From an uncultured Acidimicrobiaceae bacterium (GTDB taxonomy: Bacteria > Actinomycetota > Acidimicrobiia > Acidimicrobiales > Bog-793), in NCBI GenBank assembly GCA_963779425.1, contig CAVZYD010000006.1, positions 586,704 to 650,703 on the forward strand: a stretch of DNA of 64,000 nt, written 5' to 3'. A program made the translations under genes and the position numbers. Below, piece after piece: positions 1 through 62,413 of this stretch (its first letter is position 1; every line of letters begins with the position of its first letter). Below the pieces are notes generated by a model. It made no database searches, was not told where the DNA came from, and was given only the letters and a program-made list of their open reading frames with translations.

Positions 1-429
1 ACGCACCTCGCCATCGCCAAGTCGCTCCAGCGTCACCCGGTGCGCCAGACCGTCACCCATGTCGACTTCCAGGTCGTGCGGCGCGACGAGATCGTCACGG
101 CCGATGTCCGCATCGCCCTCGTCGGCGAGTCCGAGGCCGTTCACCGCGCCGAGGGCACTATCGACCAGGAGATGCTCAGCCTGCAGATCAAGGCCAAGCC
201 CGGCGACGTCCCCGCCGTCATCGAGGTCGACATCTCCTCGCTCGAGGTGGGTGACTCTTTGCGTGTCTCGGACCTCATGCTCCCCGAGGGTGTGACGACC
301 GACGTCGACCCGGAGGCACCGGTCGTTATCGCGCACATGCCGCGGGCGCTCGAGCCCGAGATCGAGCCCGAGGCCGAGGGAGCCGAGGCAGGCGCAGGCG
401 AGCAGCCGGCCGCTTCCGACGAGGGCTGA
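1..429 (+). CDS. rplY: 50S ribosomal protein L25 / general stress protein Ctc, C-terminal part (5' end lies upstream of the window)
   Basis: Frame-1 ORF is open from base 1 to TGA 427-429. Translation ...VTHVDFQVVRRDEIVTADVRIALVGESEAVHRAEGTIDQEMLSLQIKAKPGDVPAVIEVDISSLEVGDSLRVSDL matches the Ctc/L25 family and ends in an acidic Ala/Glu tail. It sits directly upstream of pth, the usual arrangement. Confidence 0.85.
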   Translation, partial: THLAIAKSLQRHPVRQTVTHVDFQVVRRDEIVTADVRIALVGESEAVHRAEGTIDQEMLSLQIKAKPGDVPAVIEVDISSLEVGDSLRVSDLMLPEGVTTDVDPEAPVVIAHMPRALEPEIEPEAEGAEAGAGEQPAASDEG

Positions 430-497
430 GAGCGGGCAAGCTGTTCCGCCACATCCGCGCCGCTCGTTCCCGCCAAGAAGGCGGGGACCGACAGAAG

Positions 498-1137
498 GTG
501 CCTGCCGCCGACCTCGTCGCCGTCGGGCTCGGCAACCCCGGTGTGGAGTACGAAGGGACCCGCCACAACGCCGGCGCCGAGGCCGTGCGCCTCGTGGCGC
601 AGCGCCACTCGGCCCGCTTCCGCGGGGAGAAGGGCCTCAGCGCTGAGACGGCCGTCGTGAGCATCGCCGACGCGGACGCTGGTTCTGGCGGTGCCGCAGA
701 CTTATGTGAACGAGTCCGGGCTGGCGGTGAGAGCCCTCGTGCAGCGTTACCTCGGTGCAGAGCAAGCCCCGGGATCGGGCGAGGGAGGGCGCGGTCGGGG
801 ACCGGTCGTGTTCGCGCCCGGCTCGCTCGTTATCGTCCACGACGAGCTGGACCTCGAGCCGGGCGTGGTCCGGGTCAAGCTCGGGGGAGGCACAGCCGGG
901 CACAACGGGCTGCGTTCGATCCAGTCGCACCTGCGCCATCTCGACTTCGCCCGCGTCCGCATCGGTGTCGGCAAGCCGCCGAACCCGGCTGCCGGGGCGG
1001 ACCACGTGCTGAGACGCGCCTCACGGGCTGAGCGTGACCTGATCGCCGTCGCCATCGAGGTGGCCGCCGACGCCGTCGAGTGCCTGCTCACCGACGGACC
1101 GGAAGTGGCCATGAACAGGTTCAATACGCGGGGATGA
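498..1137 (+). pseudogene. pth: peptidyl-tRNA hydrolase, split by one frameshift near 668-676 as sequenced
   Basis: Frame 3 from GTG 498 gives MPAADLVAVGLGNPGVEYEGTRHNAG, the Pth N-terminal motif. The protein continues in frame 1 as (R)TLVLAVPQTYVNESG...VIVHDELDLEPG...GGTAGHNGLRS to TGA 1135-1137. Removing one base near 669-673 restores ...SIAD-RTLVLAVPQTY. Confidence 0.85.
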
Positions 1138-4100
1138 GCCGAAGCGAGATGAGTCCGCCACCGCTGTCGGCCCTGCCGGGCCTGCTCGCCGGTGAGGCCG
1201 TCATCGCCGAGCTCCTCGGTGTCGACGACGCCGTCGTCGCTGTCCCGGACGCGGCGCGCACGGTCGTGCTCGCCGCGCTCGCCGAGCTGAGCACGGCACC
1301 CACGGTCCTCGTCGCAACGGCGACGGCCCGCGAGGCCGAGCAGCTCGCACACGACCTCGGGCCCTTCCTCGGTCCCGACTCGGTCGAGCTGCTGCCGGCA
1401 TGGGAGACGCTCCCGTTCGAGCGGGTGTCGCCCGCGACCGAGACGATGGGCCGCCGGCTTCGCACGATGTGGCGTCTACGCCACAAGGCAGCGGAGGGTT
1501 CGTCTCCCGGAGCGGAGGCGGAGGGCGCCCCGTGCGTCGTCGTCGCCCCGATCCGGGCCCTTTTGCAGCGGCTCGGCGCCGAGGGTTGAAGACACCGAAC
1601 CCGTCGTCGTCCGCCGGGGCAGCGAGCTCGACCCGTCCGCAGCTCGTGGCGCGCCTCGTGCATGCCGGCTACCGCCGCGAGTACCAGGTCGAAGCCCGCG
1701 GCGAGCTGGCGGTCCGGGGCGGCATCGTCGACGTCTTCGGCTCGACGGCCGACCACCCCGATCCGCATCGACCTGTTCGGCGACGAGGTCGAGCGCCTGA
1801 CGGCTTTCGAGGTTGCGAGCCAGCGCTCGGTCAGCGATCTCGACCAGGTCGAGCTCTTCGGCTGTCGCGAGCTCGTGCTCACCGAGGACGTGCATCGAGC
1901 GCGCCCGGGCCCTGTCCCGGTCAGCGCCCTTCGCCCAGGACAATTTCGCCAGGATCGCGGAAGGGGAGCTGTTCGACGGCATGGAGTCCTGGCTGCCGTG
2001 GCTCAGTGCCAGCGAACGCCTCTTCACCGACCTGTTGGACGAGCGCTCCCGCGTCGTGCTCGTCGAGCCCCGGCGGCTTCGCGACCGGGCGGCGGAGATC
2101 CTGGACGAGGAGGTGGCCCTGAGCGAGAGCCTGGCGACGACCTGGGGGCTCGAAGAGGTCGACGCGGCGGCTGCGATGCCGCGCCTGCACCTCGGCTTCG
2201 ACCGTCTCTTGCAGCACAGCTCGGCCAAGGTGGCCTCGCTGCTGCCGGTCGCCGAGAGCAGCCGCGCACGGTGGCCTTGCAGGCCTCTGGCTGGCCACCG
2301 GTGCTGGGCGACTCCGCCGTCCTCGCCCGCCGATTCGCCGAGCTCGCCAGCTCGGGCCACCGGGTCGTGATCTGCGCTGACGGCCGGGGCAGTGCCGAGC
2401 GCATGGCGGCGGTGCTCGACGGCGAGGGCCTGGCCTGCGATTTGCTCGTCGACGAGGCTTCCGAGACGGTCGATACCTCCATCCGCCGGCCGGGTGTCCA
2501 CATCGTCGTCGCTGCCTTGGACCGCGGCGGTCTCATCTCGAGCTCGAAGCTCGCCATCGTCGCCGAGCCGGACGTGACCGGACGGCGGCGGCCGCACCGC
2601 CAGGCGCGACCGCGACCGCGTGCCACCGAAGGCTTCTTCGACGACCTGGCGCCGGGCGACTACGTCGTCCACAACGTGCACGGCGTCGCCCGCTTCGCCG
2701 GCATGGTGACCCGCTCCATGGGCGGCGCCGAGCGCGACTACCTGCAGCTCGAGTACCGGGGCGGCGACAGGCTGTACCTGCCCTCTGAACAGATCGACGC
2801 CCTCACGCCCTACACAGGGGGCGAGTCGCCCGCCCTCAACCGCATGGGTGGCGCCGAGTGGTCACGCCAAAAGGCCCGCGTGCGGGCCGCCGTGCGCGAG
2901 GTGGCAAAGGAGCTGGTCGAGCTCTACCGGCGGCGCCACACCACCCCCGGACACGCCTTCGCCCCCGACACGCCCTGGCAGGCAGAGCTCGAGCAGGCCT
3001 TTCCCTACCCCGAGACCCCGGACCAGCTGAAGGCGGTCGAAGACGTCAAGGCGGACATGGAACGGCCCGTGCCGATGGACCGCCTCGTTTGCGGCGACGT
3101 CGGCTTCGGCAAGACCGAGGTGGCCGTGCGCGCCGTGTTCAAGGCGGTGCAGGACGGTTACCAGGCCGCCATCCTCGTCCCGACGACGCTGCTCGCCCAG
3201 CAGCACTTCCAGACGTTCTCCGAGCGCTACGCCCCCTACCCGCTGCGCGTTGAGGTGCTTTCGCGATTCCTCACGGTCGCAGAGGCGCGAAAGGTCGTCG
3301 ACGGGTTGGCGGACGGGTCGGTCGATGTCGTGATCGGCACCCACCGACTCCTCACACCCGACGTGAGGTTCAAAAAGCTGGGTCTCCTCGTCGTCGACGA
3401 GGAGCAGCGTTTCGGCGTCTCCCACAAGGAGGCCATAAAGCAGCTGACCATCGGCGTCGACGTGATCACCTTGACGGCAAGTCCTATCCCGCGCACGCTC
3501 GAGATGAGCCTTACGGGCATCCGCGACCTCTCGCTCATAACGACGCCGCCGTCGGAGCGCCAGCCGATCCTCACCTATGTCGGCGAGCACGACGAGCGCG
3601 CCGTGGCCGAGGCGCTGCGGCGCGAGCTGTTGCGGGAGGGCCAGATCTTCTACGTCCACAACCGCGTGCACGACATCGAGCGCGTCGCCGCCGAGCTGCG
3701 CAGCCTCGTGCCTGACGCCCGCGTGGCCGTCGCGCACGGCCAGATGGACGAGGGCACCCTCGAACAGGTCGTGCTGGACTTCTGGGCGGGCGCCTACGAC
3801 GTGCTCGTGTGCACGACGATCATCGAGTCCGGTATCGACATGCCCTCTGTCAACACCCTCGTGGTGGACCGGGCCGACCGTCTCGGACTAGGCCAGCTCC
3901 ACCAGCTGCGGGGCAGGGTCGGGCGTGCGGGGAGGCGTGCCTACGCCTACTTGTTGTTCCCTCCCGACCGCGTCCTGTCAGAGCAGGCCTACGAGCGCCT
4001 GCGGACCATCGGCGAGCACACCGAGCTCGGATCGGGCTTCAAGATCGCCATGCGCGACCTCGAGATCCGCGGGGCAGGCAACCTGCTCGGCAGGGACCAG

Positions 4101-4757
4101 TCCGGTCACATCGCCGCCGTCGGCTACGACCTCTATGTCCGACTCGTGGCCGAAGCGGTCTCCGAGCTCAAGGGCGAGCCGGTCCGCGTCCCGGTCGACA
4201 TCACCGTCGACCTTCCTGTCGACGCCTTCTTGCCCTCGGACTACGTGGAGCGCGAGGACTTGCGTCTCGAGGCCTACCGCAGGCTGGCGGAGGTCCGCGA
4301 GCCGAGCGCGGTCGAGGACCTTCGCGCGGAATGGCTCGATCGCTACGGCCCCCTGCCCGAAGAGGCAGAGGCGCTCGTCGCCGTCGGGCGGCTCCGGGCC
4401 GAGTGCGTCCGCACGGGTGTCACAGAGGTGACGGCCTCGGTCTCGCGCCCAGGTGCGGGAGGTCCCGGGCGCACCGGCGAGGCCGTGGCCCGAATCTCGC
4501 CTCTTCGCCTGCGGGCCTCGGCCAGGGTACGTCTCGGCCGCTTGCACCCCCGGGCCATCGTCAAGGAGGAAGTCGACCAGGTCATCGTGCCGCTTGCCGC
4601 CGGGTCCGATCTCGCCGACCGCCTCGCCGTCCTTTTGCGCGAGCTCGTCCCGCCCGAGCTCACCGCCGCCGCCCCGAGCGATCCCGACGCCGCCGCGGTC
4701 GCCGCCGCTGAGGCGGTGGCGGCTGGCTTTGTTCCCCGCGCCGCCCCTACCATCTGA
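1134..4757 (+). pseudogene. mfd: transcription-repair coupling factor Mfd, five frame changes between ~1580 and ~2265 as sequenced, then intact
   Basis: ATG 1134 overlaps the pth stop (ATGA). The homologous reading runs frame 3 to ~1582, frame 1 to ~1638 (VEDTEPVVVRRGSELDPS), then frame 2 to ~1758 (QLVARLVHAGYRREYQVEARGELAVRGGIVDVFGSTADHP). It continues in frame 3 to ~1903 (IRIDLFGDEVERL), frame 1 to ~2262 (FARIAEGELFDGMESWLPWL), and frame 3 to the TGA at 4755-4757. Later motifs are PGDYVVHNVHGVARF (CarD-like), GDVGFGKTEVA, DEEQRFG, LTASPIPRT and QLHQLRGRVGR. Confidence 0.9.
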
Positions 4758-4762
4758 GAACC

Positions 4763-5812
4763 GTGAAGCGACTCACCACCACCCTGGCAGGCCTGGCCGC
4801 CCTGTGTGTACTGGTCCTCGGCCTGTCCGGCTGCGACGTGCATCTGTCTCCTTATGCCGCCATAGTCAACGGCTCTGAGATCTCCCAGACCCAGCTGAGA
4901 AATGCCCTGGCTGCCGTGGTCGGGAACCCCAGCTACAAATGCGCCATCGAGTCGAGCGGCACGACGCACGTGACAGGGTCCGGTCAGGGCACCTACAACT
5001 CCGCTTTCGGCGCCGAGGTGCTCTCGATCCTCATCCAGGACCAGGTCCTCCGCCAGCACGTCGCCCGAATCGGCCTGAGCGAGCCGTCGGGTCTCTACGC
5101 CGCCGCCTTGAGCCAGCTGGAGACGGTCACCGCCCCCCCGTCCACCTGCCCGGGCTCGGGTGCCTCGCTCATGGCGGCTTTCCCGCCCTGGTACCGCCAG
5201 GTGCTGGTCAGGTTCCAGATGGACGAGGATGCCCTTGCCGCTCAGGCGGCGGGTACCTCGCTCAGCCCGGCCGCGCTCGACCGCTATGTCGCCGCCCACC
5301 ACAACGCCATGACGGCCGCCTGCGTCTCGGTGATCGAAGTCGGGACCAAAGCGACGGCGCTCTCCCTGCGGGCAAAGCTGCTCGGGGGCGCCAGCTTCGC
5401 CGCGGTGGCCAAGGCAGACTCGATCGACAGCACGACGGCCCCGGACGGAGGGTCCATCGGCTGCGTGCCCGACTCGATGTTCACCTCCCCTTTGAGCACC
5501 GACCTCGCCGCCCTTTCCGTCGGCCGTGTCTCCGAACCGATCAGCTTCAGCTCGGACTGGCTCCTCTTGTTGGTGACCCAACGGCAGGCCGAGTCCTACC
5601 AGGACCTGGTCTCGAGCCTGGTCGCTTTCGAGCAGAGCGCTCTCAATAAGACCTTCCCCCGGCTCATCCGATCGGCCCGTATCCAGATCGACCCGCAATT
5701 CGGCACGTGGGACACCAAGGCCAGTCTCGCCCGGGTCGATGCCAACGCCGCGCCGCCGGCCGACATCGTGCCCAACCCGGGAGCCAACTCCGCCTCGGGT
5801 GCCTCCAGTTAG
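4763..5812 (+). CDS. lipoprotein, SurA/PrsA-like peptidyl-prolyl isomerase (parvulin-type) family
   Basis: Intact 349-aa ORF. The N-terminus MKRLTTTLAGLAALCVLVLGLSGC is a signal peptide with a lipobox (LSGC). The C-terminal half (AACVSVIEVGTKATALSLRAKLLGGASFAAVAKADSID...GGSIGCV...VGRVSEPISFSSDWLLLLV) resembles a parvulin PPIase domain. This is a common position downstream of mfd in Actinobacteria. Confidence 0.6.
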   Translation: MKRLTTTLAGLAALCVLVLGLSGCDVHLSPYAAIVNGSEISQTQLRNALAAVVGNPSYKCAIESSGTTHVTGSGQGTYNSAFGAEVLSILIQDQVLRQHVARIGLSEPSGLYAAALSQLETVTAPPSTCPGSGASLMAAFPPWYRQVLVRFQMDEDALAAQAAGTSLSPAALDRYVAAHHNAMTAACVSVIEVGTKATALSLRAKLLGGASFAAVAKADSIDSTTAPDGGSIGCVPDSMFTSPLSTDLAALSVGRVSEPISFSSDWLLLLVTQRQAESYQDLVSSLVAFEQSALNKTFPRLIRSARIQIDPQFGTWDTKASLARVDANAAPPADIVPNPGANSASGASS

Positions 5813-5857
5813 CGAGCGGGCTCTCCTGCACCGCTCCAGCTTCGAGCAGCCGTCTCG

Positions 5858-9322
<3,465 letters not shown>

Positions 9323-9394
9323 CTCGGGGCCGACCACAAGGCACCGGGTCATCCCCGCCTCCGTCGAGCGGCCGCCCCGCCCGTTCCACCTGGG

Positions 9395-10592
9395 GTGGCT
9401 GTAGCCTCGGCGCTAGGTGGTGGAGGTGACGGATCTGTGAAAGAGGTGATCGCGGACATCGACCGGTGGCAGGCCGCGGGACGCCGCGTCGCCATCGCCC
9501 GGGTGATCGGCGTCGAGGGCTCCGGGCCGAGGGACCCCGGGGCGGCCATGGCCGTCAGTGAGGACGGGGAGGTCGCCGGCTCGGTCTCCGGGGGCTGCGT
9601 GGAGGGCGCCGTCGTCAGCGAGGCCCTGGCCGTGCTCGAGGACGGCCGGGCGAGGCTGTGCACCTTCGGTTACTCCGACGACGATGCCTTCGCCGTCGGG
9701 CTGACCTGTGGTGGCACCTTGCACCTGCTGGTGGAACCGCTCGACTGGTGAGGAAAGGACCGGCTCTTGGGCGGTGAGCTTTACCGCGAGCTGCGGTCCT
9801 CCCTGCTCTTGGACGAGCCTGTCGCCCTCGCGACGGTCACCGCCGTGCAAGGTGAGGCCGAAGGCCACACCGAACTCGCCGCCAAGGTCCTGGTCTGGCC
9901 CGACGGCCGCAGCCTCGGCAGCCTCGGCGACCCGGAGCTGGACCGGATCGCGAAACGCGACGCTCTCGCCGCCCTCGAGCGCGGCTTGACGGTCACGCGC
10001 CACTACGGTCCCTGCGGCGAGGCGCGCCGCGGACGAGGTCGCAGTGTTCTTGGAGGTCTTCGCTCCCGCAGCCCGCCTCATCGTCTTCGGTGCCGTCGAC
10101 TTCACGAGGGCGCTCGTAGGGGTGGGAAAGGTGCTCGGCTTCGCGGTCACGGTCTGCGACGCCCGCCCGGTGTTCGCCACGAGAGCCCGCTTTCCCCTCG
10201 CCGACGAGATCGCCGTCGAGTGGCCAGACCGGTATCTCGAGCGGGTCGGACCCGAGCTCGGGCCTCGGGACGCCATTTGCGTGCTCACCCACGACACCAA
10301 ATTCGACGTGCCGGCGATACTGGGCGCGCTGCGCACCCGGGTCGGCTATCTCGGCGCCATGGGTTCGCGGCGGACGCATGAGAAGAGGTGGGAGCGCCTC
10401 TTGGAGGCCGGCGCCGACGAGGCGGAGCTCCGAGAGCGGCTGATGAGCCCGATCGGCCTCGACATCGGTGCCCGCACACCGGAAGAAACAGCCGTGGCGA
10501 TCTTTGCGGAGATGATCGCCACGCGCACGGGGCGGGCGGAAGGAGTCGTCTCCTCGCTTCGGACAGAGACGGGACCGATCCACCGCAGCTGA
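9395..10592 (+). pseudogene. XdhC/CoxI-family molybdoenzyme maturation protein, interrupted by an in-frame TGA (9749-9751) and a frameshift near 10028
   Basis: Segment 1 (frame 2) reads RVAIARVIGVEGSGPRDPGAAMAVSEDGEVAGSVSGGCVEGAV...GLTCGGTLHLLVEPLDW then TGA. The same frame continues GKDRLLGGELYRELRSSLLLDEPVALATVTAVQGEA...GSLGDPELDRIA, a second XdhC_CoxI-like segment. It then shifts to frame 3 for DEVAVFLEVFAPAARLIVFGAVDFTRALVGVGKVLGFAVTVCDARP...GAMGSRRTHEKR...SPIGLDIGARTPEETAVAIFAEMIA, the XdhC_C Rossmann-like domain. Confidence 0.75.
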
Positions 10593-10690
10593 GCGCGAGC
10601 GGCCAAGTGGTACCGCCGGCCAGTTACCCTGTTCGCCATGACCGGGGCCGTGCGCTGAGCTCAGGGCACGGGACGAACCGAGCGAGCCAG

Positions 10691-12989
10691 ATGTCCTTGT
10701 TGGGTTGGCTCCGCTCGCGCGACCGCGACCTCGCGGCCCTTCGACGCGCCGGGCGGGCGGCGATCGTCATGCCGGCCCTGTTCGCCTTCACCGACAAGGT
10801 CCTAGCCAATCCGGCCATGGCGAGCTTCGCCGCTCTTGGCTCGTTCGCCATGCTCTTGCTGGTCGATTTCGCCGGCCCGATGCGTCTGCGGCTGGAGAAC
10901 CAAGTTGCCCTGGCCGTTGTCAGCGGCGCCCTTGTCTGTCTCGGGACGCTGGCGTCGCACGCCGCCTGGCTCGCCGCGGTGGCGATGGCCCTCGTCGCCT
11001 TCTCGGTGCTGTTCATGAGCGTCGTGAGCTCGGTGCTGGCCTCGGCGACGACCGCGTTGCTGTTGGCTTTCATCCTGGCGGTCTCGCTCCGGGCACCGAC
11101 CTCGTCGATCCCCGACCGGCTCGCCGGCTGGGAGATGGCAGCAGCGGCTGCGCTTTTCGCCATCAAGGTGTTCTGGCCGGCGCCCGAGCGCATCGCGTTG
11201 CGCGAACCGGTCGTCGTGGCATGCCGCGCCCTGGCGGCACGACTGCGTTCCGATGCAGCCTATCTGCTCGGCGGCGAGCACCAGCCTTCCGAGGCCGAAC
11301 ACGAGGAGGCGATCGCGCAGGCGAGAGCTTCGATCGGGGCTCTACGCCGCAGCTTTTACGCCACGGCGTACCGTCCCACCGGCCTCAGCACCGGAGCCAG
11401 GGCGATCGTGCGCCTGGTGGACGAGATGAGCTGGCTCGAGGCGATCATCGCCGTCTCGGCCCCCCAACCACCAGGGCTGCCGGTCAATGTCGGTGCCTGC
11501 CAGGTGAAGCTGGCGGCCGCTTCGGTCCTCGAACTGGGCGCGGACGTCCTCGAAAGACCGGCCGCGACGGCCGATGACCTCCGCCGGTCGGTTGCGGAGC
11601 TTCGCCAAAGGCTAGAGGAAGTGGAAAAGAGGGCGACGGTGGACCTCGAGGTCGGGCGGGCGCCGGCAACCCGCGATCTTGCAAACGAAGACAGGGTCAC
11701 CGAGCTCGTCACCTCGCTCGACCCCGAGTTTTCGCTCCCAGGAGCTGAGCTTCGCCGTCTTGCAGATCGCCGCCAACATCGACCTCGCCGCCGCCGCGGA
11801 TAGACGGGGCTTTCTGGAGCGTCTGACCGGTCACCAGCCGGAGGGCCTCACGAACACCCTCGCCGCCGCACAAGAGCGCGCCGTCTCCCACTTCGAGCGG
11901 CACTCGGTCACGCTGCACAACGCTGTCCGTGGAGCGGCCGGCCTCGGCCTCGCCGTCCTCGTCGCCGACCTCACAGGCGTACAGCACTCTTTCTGGGTCG
12001 TGCTCGGCACGTTGTCGGTCCTGCGTTCCAACGCCCTCAGCACGGGCCAGAACGTGCTTACGGGGCCTGGCCGGCACCGTGGCCGGGTTCATCATCGGCG
12101 CCGGTCGCGCTCGCCCTCATCGGGACGAACACGGTGCTCTTGTGGCTGTTGCTTCCCCTCTCCATCCTGCTCGCCGGCATCGCGCCGGCCGCCATCTCCT
12201 TTGCCGCCGGCCAGGCGGGCTTCACCGTGGTGCTGGTGATCCTGTTCAACATCATCCAACCCCTCGGATGGCGTGTCGGGCTCTACCGCGTCGAGGACGT
12301 CGCCATCGGCTGTGCGGTGAGCCTCGTCGTCGGAGTGCTGTTCTGGCCGAGGGGCGCCGCCGCCGCTTTGCGCCAGGCTCTGGGCGAGGCCTACGCCGAC
12401 AGTGCTCGCTACCTGGCCGGTGCCGTCGAGTTCGGCATTGGACGGTGCGACACGAGCGTCCCGGCCAGGCACGCACCCATCGACGAGGCTGCCCGGGCCG
12501 CCGCCGCCGCCCGCCGGCTCGACGACACCTTCCGCGGCTACCTCGCCGAACGGGGCGCCAAACCCGTGCCCCTTTTCGAGGTGACCGGACTGATCACCGG
12601 CGTCGTCGGCCTGCGCCTCGCCGCGGATGCCGTGCTGGACCTGTGGCGGGGCGATGATTGCCAGTCGCCGGGCGAGCGGGCCGCTGCCCGCCGAGAGCTA
12701 CTGAAGGCCAGCGAGGCTGTGACCGCCTGGTACGAGGCCCTGGCTGCGGGCCTCGTCGAGGGGAGCGACGTCCCGGCCCCTCTCGGGTCGCGACGAGTCT
12801 TTCGATCAGCGGCTCGTGGACGCGGTGCGCCGCGACCTCACAAGCGACGACGGCACTGCCAGCGCCGCCGCCGTGCGCATCATCTGGACGGGCGATCACC
12901 TCGATGCCGCCAGGAGGCTGCAGGGCCTGATCTTCGAACGGGCCCGCGAGGTTGGCGAGCGGCGCAGCCTCGGTCCTGCCTTCCGATAG
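10691..12989 (+). pseudogene. FUSC-family (fusaric-acid-resistance-like / aromatic acid exporter-like) integral membrane protein, four frame changes as sequenced
   Basis: ATG 10691 in frame 2 gives MSLLGWLRSRDRDLAALRRAGRAAIVMPALFAF... with multiple TM helices. It shifts at the T-run ~11731 to frame 3 (RSQELSFAVLQIAANIDL...GLGLAVLVADLTGVQHSFWVVLGTLSVLRSNALSTGQNVL). It shifts at ~12059 to frame 1 (RGLAGTVAGFIIGAG), then at ~12103 to frame 2 (VALALIGTNTVLLWLLLPLSILLAG...VEDVAIGCAVSLVVGVLFWPRG). The last shift, at ~12783, goes to frame 3 (GRDESFDQRLVDAVRRDL...RIIWTGDHLDAARRLQ) ending TAG 12987-12989. Confidence 0.7.
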
Positions 12990-16373: not shown

Positions 16374-16861
16374 ACCAAGGCGACCGGGAGGCCGTCGAAG
16401 GGCTCCTCGGAAGGACGCCCGAGGCTGCCTTCGAGGTAGTCGTCCGTGCCGCGGACGGTGGTCCGGTCGTCATCATGAACTCGCCCCTGCTCGACGACGG
16501 CACGCCAATGCCGACGCGCTACTGGCTCGTCGGGCGAAAAGAACGCGACACCGTGAGCCGCCTCGAGTCCCAAGGCGGCGTGCGGGCGGCGGAGAACGCC
16601 GTCGACGCCGCCGAGCTCGAGGCCGCGCACGTCTCCTACCAGGGGCTTCGTGACGCGGCGATGCCGGTAGGGCACACAGGCCCGAAGCCGACGGGCGGCG
16701 TGGGAGGTACCCGCCGCGGCGTCAAATGCCTGCACGCCCATCTCGCCTTCTACCTGGCGGGCGGCGCCGACCCGGTGGGCCGGTGGACCTGCGAGAAGCT
16801 CGGTCTCGACACTTCGAGCTACGGCGTCGATCCTTCTCCAGGCCGAGCGGGCCAGTCGTGA
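16370..16861 (+). CDS. DUF501 domain-containing protein
   Basis: GRTPEAAFEVVVRAADGGPVVIMNSPLLDDGTPMPTRYWLVG...GVKCLHAHLAFYLAGGADPVGRW matches the family encoded between divIC/ftsB and ppx in Actinobacteria (Mycobacterium tuberculosis Rv1025 context). Confidence 0.75.
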   Translation: MNQGDREAVEGLLGRTPEAAFEVVVRAADGGPVVIMNSPLLDDGTPMPTRYWLVGRKERDTVSRLESQGGVRAAENAVDAAELEAAHVSYQGLRDAAMPVGHTGPKPTGGVGGTRRGVKCLHAHLAFYLAGGADPVGRWTCEKLGLDTSSYGVDPSPGRAGQS

Positions 16862-17805
16862 GCGCATCGGGGCCCGTGGCGGCGATCGACCTCGGCACCA
16901 ACTCCACCCGCCTGCTCGTCGCCGACAGCACGGGAGCGAGTCTCGAACGCCTGATGAGGATCACCCGGCTCGGACAGGGCGTGGACCAAACAGGGCGCCT
17001 TTCAAAAGAGGCGATACAGCGCACCGTCGACGTCCTCGTGGAGTTCCGCAAGGTGATGGACCACCTCGGCGTCGTCCGCTTCCGTGCGACGGCGACCTCT
17101 GCGGCCCGGGACGCCGAGAACGAGGCTGAGCTCGCCCGCAGGGTGAAAGAGGTGCTCGGGGCGGTGCCCGAGGTCCTCCAAGGCGGGGAAGAGGCCCGCC
17201 TCACCTACCTTGGGGCGACCCGAGAGCTTGATCCGGCGCTCGGCCCGTATCTGGTCATCGACGTCGGCGGAGGCTCGACAGAGCTCGTCGGGGGCGGGCC
17301 CCCCGGTCTTCACGCCGTGTCACTTGAGATGGGCTGCGTGCGAGTGACGGAACGGTTTTTCGAGCACGACCCGCCCCAACAAAGCGAGCTCGATGCTGCC
17401 AGGCTCTATGTGCGCGCTCTCGTGAGAGGAGCCCTGCAGGCCGAGCCGGGCCTCGGCGGCGCCGCCCAGCTGATCGGGGTCGCGGGCACCGTGAGCGCGC
17501 TCGTGCGCCTTGATCAGGGCCTCGTCGAGTACGACCGGAGGCGGATCCACCACGCCCGGCTGAGCCTTTCCTCAATCGAGGCCATGGCGGGCGAGCTTGC
17601 CTCCATGAGCCTGGCGCGTCGTCTCAAATGGCCGGCACTGGAAGCCGAAAGGGCCGATGTGATCATCGGGGGCGTCATCGTCTTGTCCGAGGCCATGGCC
17701 GCCCTCGGTTTCGAGATGCTGACCGCCTCGGAGGCGGACCTCCTCGACGGGGTAGTGGCCGAGCTGGTCTCAACTCCTCCGGCTGAGGAACCTGCCGTCG
17801 GGTGA
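16858..17805 (+). CDS. ppx: Ppx/GppA-family exopolyphosphatase
   Basis: GTG 16858 overlaps the previous stop (GTGA). AAIDLGTNSTRLLVAD...RATATSAARDAEN...EEARLTYLGA...VIDVGGGSTEL are the ASKHA-fold Ppx/GppA motifs. Confidence 0.85.
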   Translation: MSASGPVAAIDLGTNSTRLLVADSTGASLERLMRITRLGQGVDQTGRLSKEAIQRTVDVLVEFRKVMDHLGVVRFRATATSAARDAENEAELARRVKEVLGAVPEVLQGGEEARLTYLGATRELDPALGPYLVIDVGGGSTELVGGGPPGLHAVSLEMGCVRVTERFFEHDPPQQSELDAARLYVRALVRGALQAEPGLGGAAQLIGVAGTVSALVRLDQGLVEYDRRRIHHARLSLSSIEAMAGELASMSLARRLKWPALEAERADVIIGGVIVLSEAMAALGFEMLTASEADLLDGVVAELVSTPPAEEPAVG

Positions 17806-17809
17806 GCGC

Positions 17810-18562
17810 CTAGGCGCTCTTGGCCTGGACGGCGAGGGCGGCACCCACCTGATCGGCGATGAAGGCCGCCACGAGGAGGCGGTCGGACGACACCGGGACG
17901 CCAGGGGTCGGGACCATGACGAAGCGCCCGAAGGTCTCACCCCGGAAGTCGACGATGAGCTCGACCTCCCGGCCGGGCAAGCCGCTGCGGTGCGCCCCCC
18001 AGCGCAGGCCACCGAGAGCGACCACGCCGGAATGCTCGATGCGGGTGGGGTGACGGTCCGACATCTTGGTCTCGAAACGGCAGTCCTTCAGCTGGAGCAG
18101 GGACTTGAGCTCGACTGCCGCACGGTTGACGACCACCGGTGCAGGCTCGCCCGCCGCGACCAGCTCGGTGAAGTCGTGGATGATGGCGATGTTGTCCGCC
18201 CCCTCCGAGGCCTCCTCGCGGTGGCCGCGGCTGCGGGCGGCGATCTCGGTGATGGCGAGTCCTACGACGAGCAGGCTGATCTCGGTTTGGAGATCAGGGC
18301 GGTCGGTGATGTTGAACGTCTCGTAGGGCTTGGTGAGGAAGAAGTCGAACCAGGCCGCCGAGGACAAGGCGGCGAGCACGCCGGCGAAGCGGTTGCCGAA
18401 AGAGCCGACGGCGACGACGACGAGGACGAGGACGAGGGCGGCGGCGGGCAGGGCGAAGTTCGTCCGGAACGGAACGAGCACGGCGGCCACAGCGAGGGGG
18501 AGCACCAGGCCGCACAGGGCCGCTATCCACGCCTTGTCGAACGCTTCGAGCCAGCGCCTCAT
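17810..18562 (-). CDS. DUF4118 domain-containing membrane protein (KdpD-type sensor membrane domain without kinase)
   Basis: Intact 250-aa ORF. The N-terminal half has 3-4 TM helices (WIAALCGLVLPLAVAAVLVPF...AALVLVLVVVAVGSFGNRFAGVLAALSSAAWFDFFLTKPYETF), typical of DUF4118. The C-terminal ~120 aa are soluble and unassigned. Confidence 0.6.
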   Translation of the reverse strand: MRRWLEAFDKAWIAALCGLVLPLAVAAVLVPFRTNFALPAAALVLVLVVVAVGSFGNRFAGVLAALSSAAWFDFFLTKPYETFNITDRPDLQTEISLLVVGLAITEIAARSRGHREEASEGADNIAIIHDFTELVAAGEPAPVVVNRAAVELKSLLQLKDCRFETKMSDRHPTRIEHSGVVALGGLRWGAHRSGLPGREVELIVDFRGETFGRFVMVPTPGVPVSSDRLLVAAFIADQVGAALAVQAKSA

Positions 18563-30379: not shown

Positions 30380-30988
30380 ATGCGAGGGAACCAGAACTAC
30401 CGGCCAGCCAAGGCGTCAGGAACGAGATTCAAGGGTCGTTTCAAGGTTTTCGGAGGGCTCTTCCTAGTCGGCATTGCGGCCCTCCTGTTGGGCTCGTTGG
30501 CGTTCTCCCCGCTCGCCGGGGCCACACCGAGTCAAGGTGCGGCGACCACTTCAATTTCAGCGAGGGACGGCTCCACCCTGGCGTCCGTGGCGACCACGTG
30601 CAGCCGCCCGGATGCCAGGGTGGCGGGGGGCGTGATTCGCGTCGGCGTCTCGGCCGGCCCTTCTCTCAAGGTCTCACCGGCCTGGTGGCCTCACTGGGGC
30701 GTCCCCCCGCGTGTCAGCGAGGCCGTCAGCCTCAAGGTCTCACCGGCCTGGTGGCCTCACTGGGGCGTCCCCCCGCGTGTCAGCGAGGCCGTCAGCCTCA
30801 AGGTCTCACCGGCCTGGTGGCCTCACTGGGGCGTCCCCCCGCGTGTCAGCGAGGCCGTCAGCCTCAAGGTCTCACCGGCCTGGTGGCCTCACTGGGGCGT
30901 CCCCCCGCGTGTCAGCGAGGCCGTCAGCCTCAAGGTCTCACCGGCCTGGTGGCCTCACTGGGGCGTCCCCCCGCGCCTTAGTCGGTAG
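30380..30988 (+). CDS. putative secreted/membrane-anchored protein ending in 4.7 perfect Trp-rich 22-aa repeats (LKVSPAWWPHWGVPPRVSEAVS)
   Basis: From ATG 30380 (alternative start 30323): MRGNQNYRPAKASGTRFKGRFKVFGGLFLVGIAALLLGSLAFSPLAGA is a signal/TM-like segment. Of the three forward frames, all open across the repeat, this one has the highest third-position GC (19 of 22 codons per unit). No family is recognised, so coding status is uncertain. Confidence 0.45.
   Translation: MRGNQNYRPAKASGTRFKGRFKVFGGLFLVGIAALLLGSLAFSPLAGATPSQGAATTSISARDGSTLASVATTCSRPDARVAGGVIRVGVSAGPSLKVSPAWWPHWGVPPRVSEAVSLKVSPAWWPHWGVPPRVSEAVSLKVSPAWWPHWGVPPRVSEAVSLKVSPAWWPHWGVPPRVSEAVSLKVSPAWWPHWGVPPRLSR
30665..30975. 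repeat. perfect 66-bp tandem repeat, 4.7 copies
   Basis: The unit is ctcaaggtctcaccggcctggtggcctcactggggcgtccccccgcgtgtcagcgaggccgtcagc. It starts at 30665, 30731, 30797, 30863 and 30929, with no mismatch until 30975. A degenerate half-copy lies just upstream (about 30622-30664). Each unit contains the inverted repeat GGCCTCACTG...CAGCGAGGCC. Confidence 0.97.
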
Positions 30989-31893
30989 TCCCCCGGCTCC
31001 GGGGCCGAAGCAGAGTCGTCAGCCGCCATCTCGGGGGTCACCTCGGTGCCCTCCCCGCTGGAACTGAGCGGTTGGTCTGAGACCTCGGGTGCCAGCCAAG
31101 GATCGGTGATCCCGTCGTGGGCACGGCCACGGTCCCGCCACAGCAAGAAGCCGGCGAGGCCGACACCGACGGCCACGAAGGCGACGGAGGCGACGAGGAC
31201 GGCTTGGTCGCCACCTGTGTTATGGGGCAAGAGCACGTACTCGTCGTTGAAACGAAAGGCCCCGTAGAGCGTTACCGCTGATGTCGCCACGACGCCGATC
31301 GGACCGCCCCGCCGGGCAATCCGGCGTTCCACCCGCAATGCGACGAGGTACACGACAAGGTCTTCGAGCGCCTGAATTATCGGCACGGGCACCCGCTTTC
31401 CAACTTGACCGGCGTAGGCCATGCCGTACCAGGCGTGGGTGAGGTTGCCGCCACCTTGGTACATGAGCTGCGGGCCGAGAAGGCGACCTACGGCCCAGGC
31501 GATCACCAACACCGGAGCGACAAGGTCGAGTGCCACACTCAAGCGCAGCTGTGGACACCAGCGCCGGGCGCAGAGCAGTCCGGTCGGGACTCCGCCGAGC
31601 AGCCCTCCGAAGCTGGAGAGGCCCCCGTGCCAGATGGCCAGGATGTCTCCCGGATTCTGTGCGTAACCCTGGGCGCCCTTCAAGTTGGCGATGACGTGCA
31701 CGGCGCGGGCGCCAACCACAGACGCAATGACGATCCAGACGAAGGCGCGACCGAGCCAGGCATCGGGGTAGCCGTGGTCGCGCAGACGCTTCGCCAGGTA
31801 GCGGTAGCCGAACCAGAACGTGATCGCGAGCCCGATCCCGTAGGTGTGGATCTGGAGCGGCCCGATATGGAAGACGACGGGGATTGGCTTCAC
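30955..31893 (-). CDS. lgt: prolipoprotein diacylglyceryl transferase
   Basis: From GTG 31893, preceded by GGGAGAG: VKPIPVVFHIGPLQIHTYGIGLAITFWFGYRYL...GDILAIWHGGLSSFGGLLGG...GRLLGPQ...YGAFRFNDEY are Lgt family motifs. The ORF stays open upstream to 31998. The C-terminal tail and the stop (30955-30957) lie inside the last copy of the 66-bp repeat. Confidence 0.85.
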   Translation of the reverse strand: MKPIPVVFHIGPLQIHTYGIGLAITFWFGYRYLAKRLRDHGYPDAWLGRAFVWIVIASVVGARAVHVIANLKGAQGYAQNPGDILAIWHGGLSSFGGLLGGVPTGLLCARRWCPQLRLSVALDLVAPVLVIAWAVGRLLGPQLMYQGGGNLTHAWYGMAYAGQVGKRVPVPIIQALEDLVVYLVALRVERRIARRGGPIGVVATSAVTLYGAFRFNDEYVLLPHNTGGDQAVLVASVAFVAVGVGLAGFLLWRDRGRAHDGITDPWLAPEVSDQPLSSSGEGTEVTPEMAADDSASAPEPGDYRLRRGGTPQ

Positions 31894-46590: not shown

Positions 46591-47625
46591 ATGATGAAGG
46601 CTCTCGTCAAGGCCAAGCCCGAGGCAGGCCTCAGTTACGAGGAAGTCCCGATCCCTTCCATCGGTCGGGGCGACGTGCTGATCAAGGTGTTGCGTACGGG
46701 TATTTGTGGAACGGACCTGCACATCTACTCCTGGGACGCCTGGGCGCAGGCGAATGTGCCGGTGCCGCTCGTCATCGGCCACGAGTTCGTCGGCCAGATC
46801 GTTGATCTCGGCGTAGACGTCGAGGAGCTCGCCACAGGCGACCTCGTGAGCGGCGAGGGCCACCTTGTCTGCGGGCGCTGTCGCAACTGCATCGCGGGCC
46901 GCCGCGTGCAATGCGCCCACACAAAGGGGATCGGGGTCAATTACCCCGGCGCTTTCGCCGAGTACATCGCGCTTCCGGCTTCGAACGTGTGGCGCCACAG
47001 GGATGACATCGACCTCGACGTGGCGGCGATCTTCGACCCCTTCGGCAATGCTGTCCACACCGCCCTCGCCTTCCCCGTCCTCGGCGAGGACGTGCTCATA
47101 ACCGGAGCCGGCCCGATCGGGATCATGGCGGCGATCGTGGCCCGCCACGCGGGGGCCCGTTTTGTGGTCGTCACCGACGTATCGCAGTACCGCCTCGAAC
47201 TAGCCCGATCTGTGGGCGTGACTCTTGCCGTCGACGTCGGGCAAATGACCCTCGCCGAGGCCATGAGCGAGCTCAAGATGGCCGAAGGCTTCGACGTCGG
47301 CTTCGAGATGTCCGGGCGCGCCTCGGCGTTTCAGGACATGCTTGCCGCCATGGCCCATGGCGGCAAGATCGCCATGTTGGGGCTGCCGAACGAGAACTTC
47401 GGCATCGACTGGTCGCACCTTGTCATGAACATGATCACGATCAAGGGCATCTACGGCCGGCAGATGTTCGAGACCTGGTACTGGATGTCGGTCCTCGTCC
47501 AGTCGGGCGTCGACATCTCCCCGGTCATCACCCATCGCTACGCCGCCACCGAGTTCGAGGAGGCGTTCGAGGTCATGGCTGACGGGCGCTGCGGCAAGGT
47601 CGTGCTCACCTGGTCCGAAGCCTGA
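46591..47625 (+). CDS. tdh: L-threonine 3-dehydrogenase
   Basis: [53 protein letters not shown]...[11 protein letters not shown]...[17 protein letters not shown]...[11 protein letters not shown] are the zinc-ADH Tdh signatures. The gene is followed by kbl. Confidence 0.9.
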
Positions 47626-52745: not shown

Positions 52746-53735
52746 GTGGCGGTGACGCCCGCGCCGCGCTCGACGGCGGCGATCGGGGCAGAACTGGGCG
52801 AGCCTGCTCGCCGTGAGCTGTTGGCCCCGAGCTCTGCGCTCTCGGAGCGCTACAGAAGCCCCGGCGCCGACGCTTACAGCCGTCGCTTGTCGTCAGCCGA
52901 GCTGCGCGCCTATTTGGCAACCCGGGTCCCGGCCACGTTCGCGGCGACCCGGAGGGTGCTGTTCGAGGTGGCCTCGCTGCGGCCGGGCTTCTCGCCCCGG
53001 AGCCTGCTCGACTTGGGGGCGGGGCCGGGCACGGCGACTTGGGCGGCGGCCGACGTCTTCTCAGCGATCGAAAGAGCCGTCCTCGTAGAGCGCGGGCCGG
53101 ACGTGGCGGCCCTCGGAGCCCGCCTTTTCGACAGGGCCGTGAGCTGGCTCGGAGATGGTGTCGAGTGGGTGGTGGGCGATGTCGCCACCGTGAGCCTGCC
53201 CGAGAGCGACCTCGTCGTGGCGGCTTACCTCCTCGGCGAGCTCGGTCACGACCGCGAGCTGCCGGCACTCGAGCGGTGGTGGAGGGCGACGCGTGGAGAG
53301 CTGGTCATAGTCGAGCCCGGAACCCCAGCGGGATTCGAGCGGCTGCGGGCGGCGAGGAGCGCGCTCATCTCCTTCGGGGCACAGGTGACGGCGCCCTGTC
53401 CCCATGACCGGACTTGCCCCATGACTGCTCCGGACTGGTGCCACTTCGCCGTCCGCCTCGAGCGCTCGGCCCTGCACCGCGACCTCAAGGGGGCGCGCCT
53501 CGGCTACGAGGACGAAAAGTTCTCCTACGTGGCCGTCTCCTCGAGGCGGCCCCGGGAGGCCTCGGTCCGGCTGGTGCGCTCCCCCCGTCTTCACAAGGGC
53601 CACGCGCGGCTGGTGTGCTGCGAGGCGGACGGCCTCGTCGAGCGCGTCGTCAGCCGGCGCGACGGCGAGCTGTACAAGCAAGCCCGCGCCGCGCGCTGGG
53701 GCGACCGGATCGAGGTGGTGGTGCCGCCCGTATAA
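52746..53735 (+). CDS. Rsm22-family SAM-dependent methyltransferase
   Basis: ...YLATRVPATFAATRRVLFEV...SLLDLGAGPGTATWAA...VVAAYLLGEL...LVIVEPGTPAGFERL...CPHDRTCPM...WCHFAVRLERS is the Rsm22-like pattern with the C-terminal Cys cluster. Confidence 0.7.
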   Translation: MAVTPAPRSTAAIGAELGEPARRELLAPSSALSERYRSPGADAYSRRLSSAELRAYLATRVPATFAATRRVLFEVASLRPGFSPRSLLDLGAGPGTATWAAADVFSAIERAVLVERGPDVAALGARLFDRAVSWLGDGVEWVVGDVATVSLPESDLVVAAYLLGELGHDRELPALERWWRATRGELVIVEPGTPAGFERLRAARSALISFGAQVTAPCPHDRTCPMTAPDWCHFAVRLERSALHRDLKGARLGYEDEKFSYVAVSSRRPREASVRLVRSPRLHKGHARLVCCEADGLVERVVSRRDGELYKQARAARWGDRIEVVVPPV

Positions 53736-60526: not shown

Positions 60527-61558
60527 ATGCCGACAATCCAAGCTCGGGGGCTGACGAAGCGTTTCGGTGGGAAGGTCCTCGCCGTCGACCATCTCGACTT
60601 CGACGCCATCCCGGGCGGGGTAACAGGCTTCCTCGGCCCGAACGGGGCCGGCAAGACAACCACGCTGCGGATGCTCCTCGGCCTCGTCACCCCGACCTCG
60701 GGCAGCGTGCTTGTCGACGGCCATCGCTATCGCGACCTGCCCGATCCCACCGAGCGCATCGGCGCCGTGCTCGAGGCGTCGGGGTTCCACCCAGCTCGCA
60801 CGGCGCGCAACCACCTGAGGATCGTGGCGAACATGGCGAACCTGCCCTTTTCCAGGGTGGAGGAGTGTCTCGACCTTGTGGGACTTTCCGAGGTCGCCGA
60901 CCGCAAGGTGGGTGGCTTCTCGATGGGCATGCGCCAGCGCCTCGAGCTTGCTCGCGCCCTGATGGGCAAGCCGGACATCCTCGTCCTCGACGAACCGGCC
61001 AACGGCCTCGACCCCCAGGGCATCGCGTGGCTGCGCGACTTCCTCCGTTTCTACGCCTCGGAGAAACCCGTCTCGGGCGACGGTCGCATCGTGATCGTGT
61101 CCTCACACCTCCTCTCTGAAGCGCAGCTGATCGTGGACGATGTCATCGTCCTCACCGCCGGCCGCCTCGCCGCCCAGGGCAGGTTGGCGGACCTGCTTGC
61201 CGGCACGAAGCGTTCCGTCCGGGTCCGAACGCCCGATGCGGAGCGCCTCGTTCACGCCCTCAAGGCGGCGGGTCTTCCCGCCGTGTTTCAAGATGGATTC
61301 GTCGTGTGCGAAGGGTGCACGCCCGAACTCGTGGGTCCGGTCATGGTCGAGAACCGGATCGAGGTGCACGAGATGGTCTCTTCGACCGAATCGCTCGAGT
61401 CCCTCTTCTTCTCGCTGACAGGAGGTGAGCCGGCAATGGCCGGCCAGCCTGCGGCGCCTATGGGCGATTACCGCCGTTTTAACGACGGCCCGGCGCCTCC
61501 GCCCGCCCAGGCGCAGATGCCTTCATCGTCGCCAGGGCCGGTCGGAGGTCAGCGGTGA
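60527..61558 (+). CDS. ABC transporter ATP-binding protein (ABC-2 / DrrA-like)
   Basis: Walker A GPNGAGKTTTL, signature FSMGMRQRLELARAL, Walker B ILVLDEPANGLD, H-loop VSSHLL. The C-terminal extension is Pro/Ala-rich. Confidence 0.9.
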   Translation: MPTIQARGLTKRFGGKVLAVDHLDFDAIPGGVTGFLGPNGAGKTTTLRMLLGLVTPTSGSVLVDGHRYRDLPDPTERIGAVLEASGFHPARTARNHLRIVANMANLPFSRVEECLDLVGLSEVADRKVGGFSMGMRQRLELARALMGKPDILVLDEPANGLDPQGIAWLRDFLRFYASEKPVSGDGRIVIVSSHLLSEAQLIVDDVIVLTAGRLAAQGRLADLLAGTKRSVRVRTPDAERLVHALKAAGLPAVFQDGFVVCEGCTPELVGPVMVENRIEVHEMVSSTESLESLFFSLTGGEPAMAGQPAAPMGDYRRFNDGPAPPPAQAQMPSSSPGPVGGQR

Positions 61559-62413
61559 GGGGCCTTTTGACTGCAGAGGTCCGCAAGCTATGGACGATCT
61601 GGTCCAGCTATGTGGTCCTCCTGATCGTGGTCGTGATCGACCTGCTGTTCGGGTTCATAATCGCCTTCGCGCCCGGTGGGCGTCACCGCGGGGCCGCCGG
61701 TCTCGTCCCGCACGGCTCGTCCCAGTGGTTCACGAACGTGTTCGCCGTGCTCGACAACTCGCGGCTGCTTGGCGCTCGTGCTCGGGGTGCTCATCATCAC
61801 CGGGGAGTACCGCCACAAGACCGTCACGCCGACCTTCCTCGCCGAACCGCGCCGGGGTCGTGTCGTGACAGCGAAACTCGGGGTGAGCTTCGGGGCGGGT
61901 CTCGTTCTCGGGGCGATCACGATGTTGACAGGCCTTGTCATAGGCCTCGTTCTCGTCGGCCTCAAGGTGCACTCATGCCTGTCTTTCGCCGGCGTGGGCC
62001 AGGGCGTGTCGCAGGCGATGTGTTCGGCGCAGCACGGTCTTTACTACGTGGCGAACACCCACGACATGTGGCACGACTGGTCGCAGATCGCCCCCGGCGT
62101 CATTCTCGGGACAGGTCTGTTCGCCATCTACGGGCTCGGTCTCGGCGCGTTGTTGAAGAACCAGATCGTGGCCATCGTCGTCGGGCTCATCTTCACCCTG
62201 GTCGTCGAGTCGATCATCGTTGCCGTATGGCCCACTATCGGGGAGTACCTTCCCGGCCAGGCGGCCACGGCGCTCGAGGACGCCGCCAGGACGAGCTTCT
62301 CGGGCACTGCGCAGTTGTTGCCCTGGTGGGGCGGGGCGGGCATGCTCCTCGTCTACGGCATTGCGCTGGCTCTGGTGGGAACCTTCACGACCCTTCGCTC
62401 TGACATCACCTGA
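61555..62413 (+). pseudogene. ABC-2-type transporter permease, one frameshift near 61767 as sequenced
   Basis: GTG 61555 overlaps the ATPase stop (GTGA). Frame 1 gives MRGLLTAEVRKLWTIWSSYVVLLIVVVIDLLFGF...WFTNVFAVLDNSRL. The protein continues in frame 2 as LALVLGVLIITGEYRHKTVTPTFLAEPRRGRVVTAKL... with further TM helices to TGA 62411-62413. Confidence 0.75.

Follow-up and report, generated by a model that had tools for sequence, protein, structure and literature searches.

Frame breaks in seven neighbouring genes of an Acidimicrobiales assembly are very probably an artefact

Have seven genes, core housekeeping genes among them, decayed together in a living bacterium, or is the sequence at fault? 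The question is raised by the left end of a 64-kb stretch of DNA (the whole stretch that was analysed, hereafter the window), in which pth, mfd, a mazG gene, eno, ftsB (divIC), xdhC and a FUSC-family gene had been described as readable only by hopping between frames. The original prediction took locally poor sequence, instead of simultaneous loss of essential genes, as its default reading. The disruption itself was confirmed in two ways: the Pfam matches of pth, mfd, mazG, eno, DivIC, XdhC and FUSC were each spread across different reading frames, and a GC3 frame plot showed the same frame hops as the Pfam matches.

Employing the intact PPIase-domain gene as an anchor, we retrieved 12 reference assemblies, independent of the window and from the same Acidimicrobiales population (99.0-99.8% identity to the window); they come from NCBI, ENA and Logan (at least 10 accessions) and include k141-named, MEGAHIT-style short-read contigs. 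A scan of GTDB genomes with Mfd returned only relatives at no more than 78% amino-acid identity, which served to place the organism in the Acidimicrobiales but were of no use for base-level comparison. Aligned to the references, the window showed 20 one-base insertions and no deletion between positions 669 and 12785 (Table 1), and all 20 extra bases were missing from every assembly covering the site (1 to 10 assemblies per site). Each insertion lay at most 10 nt from one of the positions previously listed for checking. The predicted numbers of frame changes per gene also agreed with the alignment (one each in pth, mazG, divIC and xdhC, six in eno, four in the FUSC gene), including the five of mfd, where six extra bases fall at five places. 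The region 2.3-7.0 kb, said to be clean, had zero indels (2271-7049). The region 13.1-61.5 kb was not wholly intact as claimed: a further insertion is present at 52771, and another lies beyond it, at 61767. In the whole window, 22 insertions stood against 0 deletions (sign test, 5e-7). Since 20 of the 22 were located within the leading 20% of its length (binomial, 2e-12), their clustering is non-random.

Table 1. Genes, extra bases and the divergent stretch in the window (positions are those of the window)
Feature	Position	Strand	Description
Divergent stretch	1..12785	+	~99 window-private substitutions, 20 insertions; continues past left window edge
Insertion sites 1-10	669, 1581, 1639, 1760, 1893, 2268, 2270, 7050, 7710, 8051		
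Insertion sites 11-20	8199, 8549, 8632, 8733, 8974, 10031, 11726, 12058, 12105, 12785		
pth (peptidyl-tRNA hydrolase)	498..1137	+	212 aa once repaired; extra G at 669
mfd (transcription-repair coupling factor)	1134..4757	+	1205 aa once repaired
mfd extra bases	1581 G, 1639 G, 1760 G, 1893 C, 2268 A, 2270 G		
PPIase-domain gene	4763..5812	+	349 aa, intact; protein identical in six other assemblies
TP_methylase + MazG (yabN-like)	5858..7355	+	498 aa once repaired; extra C at 7050
eno (enolase)	7544..8875	+	441 aa once repaired
eno extra bases	7710 A, 8051 T, 8199 G, 8549 G, 8632 A, 8733 C		
divIC/ftsB	8872..9322	+	149 aa once repaired; extra G at 8974
XdhC_CoxI gene, separate	9437..9751	+	104 aa, intact; own stop is the supposed in-frame TGA
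xdhC	9767..10592	+	274 aa once repaired; extra G at 10031
FUSC-family membrane protein	10691..12989	+	764 aa once repaired
FUSC gene extra bases	11726 G, 12058 T, 12105 T, 12785 G		
Extra C	52771	+	Rsm22-like gene, near 5' end; CTG reads CT-C-G; absent from 9/9 references
Extra G	61767	+	285-aa gene, function unassigned, start 61555; CTC reads CT-G-C; absent from 7/7 references

Removal of the 20 bases gave seven full-length open reading frames without a single internal stop, and their products share 97.2-100% of amino acids with the reference proteins; no nonsense codon was left after removal of the insertions. The other assemblies of the population showed single open frames for all seven genes, with intact lengths of 212 aa (pth), 1205 (mfd), 498 (mazG), 441 (eno), 149 (DivIC), 274 (XdhC) and 764 (FUSC). 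The extra bases are thus private to this assembly, and their removal restores every gene. The TGA near 9750, listed earlier as a lesion of xdhC, naturally terminates a separate, intact XdhC_CoxI gene that precedes the 274-aa XdhC gene in all references. We also considered whether the net restoration of frame in mfd and eno, with six insertions each, is meaningful, and judged it a coincidence; both counts would be multiples of 3 by chance in ~1/9 of cases, and the shifted segments contain stops. In the other 51 kb of the window there was no further copy of pth, eno or mfd. Judged by sequence comparison, what underlies the insertions is a set of ordinary, intact and probably single-copy housekeeping genes of an uncultured Acidimicrobiales bacterium.

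The insertions are accompanied by substitutions. Ninety-nine window-private substitutions were found in 1-12093, the last of the divergent stretch being at 12093, versus 2 in the remaining 51 kb, and each of these two lies 523-758 nt from one of the two remaining insertions. From ~13.8 kb on, the window is ~100% identical to JBKQHW010000014.1 (100.000% in 13839-35350, a repeat-number difference aside). A 66-nt tandem repeat has three more copies in the window than in three reference assemblies; the extra copies fit a long-read origin of the window. The divergence of the stretch from the references is ~0.8%, mostly synonymous: 74 of the 99 private substitutions fall on the third base of a codon in the original frames, downstream of the frameshifts too, and the affected codons number 71 synonymous versus 25 non-synonymous. 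Because its substitutions are third-position and synonymous, the stretch is not simply 'noisy'; because they keep the original codon phase, selection would have acted on the genes up to the point at which the insertions 'appeared'. An insertion lay at a median of 58 nt from the closest private substitution, compared to 4710 nt when sites were placed at random across the window. Within the divergent stretch the association was weak (p = 0.04), and the ratio of insertions to substitutions was uneven (0/25 in 2271-4303 versus 5/4 in 9017-12989).

The identity of the inserted bases was also informative. The original prediction had associated several shifts with short homopolymers, the CCCC and TTTT runs in particular. 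The shifts do not, however, alter homopolymer length: the G at 1760 comes after the CCCC run and the G at 11726 stands 2 nt ahead of the TTTT run. Only 6 of the 20 insertions lengthen an existing run, these runs are only 1-2 bases long, and 10 such cases were expected by chance. With this count and with zero deletions, homopolymer-type sequencing error of the nanopore, 454 or Ion Torrent style was rejected. In 17 of the 20 cases (19 of 22 overall), the inserted base is a synonymous alternative of a neighbouring base, compared to a null mean of 9.4/20 (p = 0.0004-0.0007), an excess that a context-specific error could mimic. Codon 377 of mfd reads GC-A-C-G, so that the third position is occupied by three bases in series, A-C-G. 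Three insertions (7710, 8632 and 8733) would be non-synonymous if read as alleles, and that at 8733 would alter the conserved Glu of the enolase SERxAKYN motif and is unlikely to be a real allele. There is also a preference of context: five insertions convert CC^A into CCGA, and 10 of the 22 create a CpG. In a genome of 70% G+C the CC^A context falls at codon boundaries by itself, and the codon-phase signal may be in part one of context.

Taken together, the absence of the extra bases from independent assemblies, the restoration of the genes on their removal, the 22:0 excess of insertions and the preserved codon phase argue for an artefact and against decay. We conclude that the frame breaks are very probably an artefact of some kind, with no biology behind them, as the default reading had supposed. 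Something more specific than low coverage is the probable cause, as suggested by the strain-divergent stretch and by the second-allele look of the inserted bases. With moderate confidence, we favour a collapse of mixed strains in which both alleles were kept. Reads over the stretch would derive from at least two closely related strains; alternatively, noisy long reads would have bridged a gap where strain variation had broken the accurate assembly. At a polymorphic site, the consensus step would handle a base difference as 'deletion plus insertion' and leave both alleles side by side, so that GCC/GCG, for example, would become GCCG. Such a process would be expected to produce insertions alone, outside homopolymers, mostly at third codon positions and confined to strain-variable sites. 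The allele-stacking step and the read type are what we infer from this pattern.

The putative second alleles were sought elsewhere. None was found within 3 nt of any insertion site in up to 10 references, which do not vary at all over that distance, and the spectrum of the inserted bases, read as alleles, is unlike that of the private substitutions. The repaired pth, mfd, mazG and xdhC products and six of the eight enolase variants that arise when each of three putative non-synonymous alleles is included or left out had no exact match among 15 billion proteins. The products peculiar to the shifted frames, namely a 1031-aa mfd fragment, a 412-aa mazG fragment and the 282-aa ORF at 61555, likewise had no entry in the collections searched. 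Since no reference carries the alleles and the repaired proteins are absent from that collection, the second strain is without independent documentation. A 48-nt haplotype-specific pattern and a two-site pattern accepting either allele (valid in that it matches the window and four references) gave zero matches in JGI metagenome contigs, a collection from which the locus is missing and which is hence uninformative.

An artefact could also have arisen with strain polymorphism irrelevant to it. If few or unpolished insertion-prone long reads, or a low-coverage patch, underlie the stretch (as when a gap in a short-read graph is closed with long-read consensus), random or context-specific extra bases would survive, and we regard this as possible but less probable than strain collapse. 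The two share the same comparative evidence, namely the absence of the extra bases from independent assemblies and the repair of the genes on their removal. Raw errors of PacBio continuous long reads are insertion-dominated, and an insertion-only profile in non-homopolymer contexts would suit such errors; the preference for CC^A and CpG and the lack of the proposed second alleles in any reference also speak for a generic error. However, random noise should produce neither 17 synonymous neighbours in 20 (p ~5e-4) nor the A-C-G series at one third codon position, the insertions follow the strain-divergent stretch, and the substitutions of that stretch are evolutionary in character.

Were the lesions real and the seven genes pseudogenes, they would be compensated by paralogues elsewhere or would belong to a non-viable or decaying lineage. 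The stretch is indeed a truly distinct haplotype, of other DNA than the references, but up to ten assemblies from other samples carry the genes intact, the locus in the window is the primary copy, syntenic with the references and flanked by identical sequence, and the bias of substitutions to synonymous third positions, past the frameshifts too, shows no relaxation of selection. Nonsense mutations, larger indels and IS elements are all absent. Bacterial pseudogenes reportedly decay with a deletion bias (Mira, Ochman and Moran, 2001), opposite to the insertions-only profile of the window. Cells normally cannot do without pth, eno and ftsB, and the other 51 kb contains no paralogue of them. Pseudogenisation is accordingly very unlikely. 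Even less credence is given to the view that a strain now living, or dead only recently, truly carries the 22 extra bases in its DNA, as a localised +1 burst that struck essential genes with a preference for codon boundaries within a very short time; if true, the burst would imply either an insertion-only mutational process so far unknown or a second intact pth-mfd-eno-ftsB block elsewhere. The least probable explanation is programmed recoding, in which ribosomal frameshifting, transcriptional slippage or RNA editing would bypass the extra bases. Nothing more than the frame changes themselves speaks for it, whereas the contexts of the 20 sites are heterogeneous and share no common slippery or stimulatory motif, stops occur a few codons into several shifted segments, and up to 6 events would be required in one gene. 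The same proteins are encoded in a single frame in near-identical strains, hence there is no conserved recoding site; on this comparison, recoding is effectively refuted by the intact orthologues.

The biological weight of the frame breaks would be nil, the genes of the real organism being ordinary and intact. Annotation of the record would nonetheless yield at least seven false pseudogenes, including eno, pth, ftsB and mfd, which would lower estimates of completeness and quality and could suggest spurious metabolic gaps. The pattern may also serve as a read-free signature of strain-collapse or gap-fill errors in metagenome-assembled genomes, its marks being that all indels are insertions, lie in non-homopolymer contexts, neighbour third codon positions and coincide with strain-specific substitutions.

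Among known systems, the pseudogene clusters of reductive genomes (Mycobacterium leprae and recent host-restricted pathogens) resemble the window in that many adjacent genes are frameshifted, but they combine a deletion bias with nonsense mutations and relaxed dN/dS and persist across related strains, and the window shows none of these features. Frameshift errors in long-read consensus sequences are well known (PMC9262707). Indel errors of long-read or hybrid consensus, as examined in IDEEL-type tests (PMC9262707; PMC12007338), are alike in that single-base indels split conserved genes, are missing where the same organism has been assembled accurately and yield full-length proteins upon reference-based repair. 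In their classic form, these errors are changes of homopolymer length, with many deletions and a genome-wide distribution, whereas in the window 22 of 22 are insertions, most of them outside homopolymers, and 20 fall within 12.8 kb. A further parallel is found in a collapsed PacBio assembly, where nearby allelic variants caused misaligned reads, INDEL errors and apparent frameshifts (PMC8445201). The Trypanosoma brucei Lister 427 collapsed-haplotype assembly described there concerns a diploid eukaryote and offers read-level proof; the strains considered here would be those of a bacterial community, their mixture being deduced from the co-location of insertions with private substitutions and from inserted bases that look like synonymous second alleles. 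In both, apparent frameshifts would stem from the merging of two slightly different haplotypes, with errors that co-localise with true variants and genes that are intact in each real haplotype.

Pfam matches to ORF fragments placed each of seven genes (pth, mfd, mazG, eno, DivIC, XdhC and FUSC) in at least two reading frames of the window (G+C, ~70%), and a GC3 frame plot showed the same frame hops. The agreement of the two established that the split genes of the original prediction, with at least 19 frame changes, had been correctly observed.

Positions of the gene block, two of its intact genes and the single-base insertions in the window
Feature	Position	Strand	Remarks
Conserved housekeeping block	1-13 kb	+ (all genes)	rplY (3' part), pth, mfd, PPIase-domain gene, TP_methylase+MazG (yabN-like), eno, divIC/ftsB, small XdhC_CoxI gene, xdhC, FUSC-family membrane protein gene
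MOSC-domain gene and G6PD	after the block
PPIase-domain protein	4763-5812	+	349 aa, intact
XdhC_CoxI gene	9437-9751	+	104 aa, separate, intact
Insertions, pth to mfd	669, 1581, 1639, 1760, 1893, 2268, 2270
Insertions, 7050 to 8733	7050, 7710, 8051, 8199, 8549, 8632, 8733
Insertions, 8974 to 12785	8974, 10031, 11726, 12058, 12105, 12785
Insertion C	52771		near 5' end of Rsm22-like methyltransferase gene (starts ~52730 in references)
Insertion G	61767		in 285-aa gene of no assigned function (61555 to ~62413), adjoining ABC ATPase gene

A residue-identical copy of the PPIase-domain protein was found on six other public contigs with different accessions (NCBI MAGs, one ENA assembly and one Logan assembly), and on all six the neighbouring genes were intact: pth (212 aa), mfd (1205), mazG (498), eno (441), DivIC (149), XdhC_CoxI (104), XdhC (274) and FUSC (764). 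Employing the 104-aa XdhC_CoxI protein as a second query, we found six further contigs, in all of which the neighbouring genes were intact. The window was 99.0-99.8% identical to these reference contigs, and its length differences from them in the gene block consisted of 20 single extra bases, with no deletions. At each of the 20 sites, all covering assemblies (one over 669, two over the mfd sites and 7-10 over the sites at and beyond 7050) lacked the extra base; the predicted frame-change positions all lay within 10 nt of an aligned insertion. After in silico deletion of the 20 bases, all seven ORFs were full length, lacked internal stops and had 97.2-100% amino acid identity to the reference proteins. 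Both the absence of these bases from all covering assemblies and the restoration of the ORFs support locally poor sequence, the default reading proposed originally. The seven-gene disruption is almost certainly not a real biological feature.

Some details had to be revised. The TGA near 9750, taken for an in-frame lesion, is the natural stop of the XdhC_CoxI gene, which is a gene of its own in all references. In this lineage xdhC is by nature two adjoining genes (9437-10592), one encoding a 104-aa XdhC_CoxI-only protein and the next a 274-aa protein with XdhC_CoxI and XdhC_C; this arrangement was kept in 10 of 10 covering references. Several shifts had been assigned to homopolymers, but the insertions are not run-length changes: 6 of 20 lengthen a run (1-2 identical bases), versus 10 expected if random, and the inserted G comes after CCCC at site 1760 and before AGTTTT at site 11726. 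The rest of the window, described as clean, was not entirely so, as comparison over the full 64 kb revealed two more private one-base insertions, missing from 9/9 (52771) and 7/7 (61767) references. Despite the former, the Rsm22-like ORF is almost full length via an alternative GTG at 52746, so that the insertion is easy to overlook; in the gene carrying the latter, the shifted frame is open by chance to nearly the same length (282 aa).

Over 13839-35350, the window was 100.000% identical to JBKQHW010000014.1 (GCA_052148615.1) except for a repeat-number difference, and from 35350 to 64000 it was 99.97-99.99% identical. In 1-12093, there were ~99 sites at which the window differed from this contig and from every other reference (private substitutions). 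The insertions share this divergent stretch, 20 of 22 falling within the window's first 20% (binomial 2e-12), with a looser association inside it: 2271-4303 contains 25 substitutions and no insertions, and 9017-12989 contains 4 substitutions and 5 insertions. Outside the stretch there are two private substitutions only, 53294 and 61009, each 523-758 nt from a remaining insertion (523 nt for 53294 and 52771). Within 1-12093, the private substitutions were strongly directional and mostly at synonymous third-position sites: the window has G/C versus A/T in all references at 63 sites, whereas 7 sites show the opposite (p = 2e-12). With this direction, the first 12 kb appears "ancestor-like" beside a clade comprising up to 10 assemblies. 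Such a look would result from a majority consensus over a mixed population, because the derived GC-to-AT changes of each lineage are out-voted; a real, less mutated lineage is another possible explanation.

Other differences among the assemblies were also observed. A 66-nt tandem repeat lies just downstream of lgt (30599-30994; perfect array 30665-30975, with 4.7 perfect copies and degenerate flanking copies). The window exceeds three reference assemblies by three copies (198 nt), either because the repeat has collapsed in those assemblies or because the copy number truly differs; the extra copies fit a long-read component in the window assembly. L098, a reference from ENA (ERZ27250145 k141_282609), shows ~55 mostly third-position differences in a ~415-nt tract (window 46803-47217) inside a zinc-type alcohol dehydrogenase gene, with a compensating 1-nt deletion/insertion pair at 46832/46836. 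This tract probably arose by natural recombination; its differences are symmetric in AT/GC direction, unlike the window's private substitutions. In pth (693-831), the two covering references, L081 and L082, differ at 30 close-set sites, at each of which the window equals one of them; the pattern resembles a short tract of recombination between strains. In another reference, L088 (GCA_052915985.1, JBLFLA010249561.1), an IS4-family transposase gene (Nterm_IS4 + DDE_Tnp_1; 16803-18005) next to an NTP_transf_3 gene occupies the place of the G6PD gene of the window and other references, and is a strain-specific insertion or synteny break.

Bacterial pseudogenes decay with a deletion bias, whereas the 22 one-base indels that set the window apart from the reference consensus are all insertions (sign test 5e-7). 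Its differences here include neither nonsense mutations nor mobile elements, and no indel of larger size. Of the 99 private substitutions, 74 fell at position 3 of codons in the original frames; the substitutions changed 71 codons synonymously versus 25 non-synonymously, downstream of frameshifts included; the frames were therefore maintained until the insertions "appeared". By their codon pattern, these substitutions reflect true evolutionary divergence under purifying selection. The locus is also the primary copy in syntenic position, and on its downstream side the sequence runs into a reference contig at ~100% identity. All of this argues against real mutations in truly decayed genes, which we consider very improbable. 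Programmed recoding is excluded by the lack of a slippery motif common to the insertion sites and the use of a single frame by near-identical strains.

We favour allele stacking, in which reads of closely related strains would have been merged into one consensus and, at some polymorphic sites, a mismatch would have been handled as a deletion plus an insertion, both alleles being kept in tandem. Of the 20 insertions, 16 directly adjoin the base at a third codon position, to which 15 would be synonymous alternatives (for example GCC+G, TCC+G, CA+T+C and CT+G+A); insertion 12058 supplies a synonymous alternative at the first position of a Leu codon (CTA/TTA), and mfd codon 377 (GC-A-C-G) has three bases serially at the third position. 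Synonymous-neighbour insertions amounted to 17/20, versus a simulated mean of 9.4 with run-normalised placement (p = 0.0004-0.0007), and those at 52771 (CTG/CTC) and 61767 (CTC/CTG) match the pattern. Allele stacking would explain why all the indels are insertions in non-homopolymer contexts, why they show a codon-phase bias and why they share a stretch with strain divergence. However, the proposed second alleles were seen in no reference, and the repaired haplotype-specific proteins were absent from a large protein collection. Read as alleles, insertions 7710, 8632 and 8733 would be non-synonymous, the last altering the conserved Glu of the enolase SERxAKYN motif; lying 3 nt from a private synonymous substitution, it may be a local misalignment. 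In addition, CC^A became CCGA at five insertions and a CpG was created at 10/22, so that generic consensus noise of the insertion type, arising where the stretch was poorly supported or gap-filled, could, if context-specific, imitate the codon-phase signal given a genomic G+C of 70%. Because of the second alleles and proteins not found, the non-synonymous cases and this possible context error, we regard allele stacking as probable rather than assured and generic noise as a less likely but serious candidate, with very little weight left for real decay and practically none for recoding.

The result calls for caution when annotating this record, and the pattern can serve as a signature by which strain-collapse errors are recognised. 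That long-read consensus sequences contain frameshift errors is generally well documented (PMC9262707), and variant-caused INDEL errors have a published precedent in the collapsed PacBio assembly of a diploid trypanosome, in which nearby allelic variants led to wrong read alignments and INDEL errors truncating ORFs (PMC8445201).
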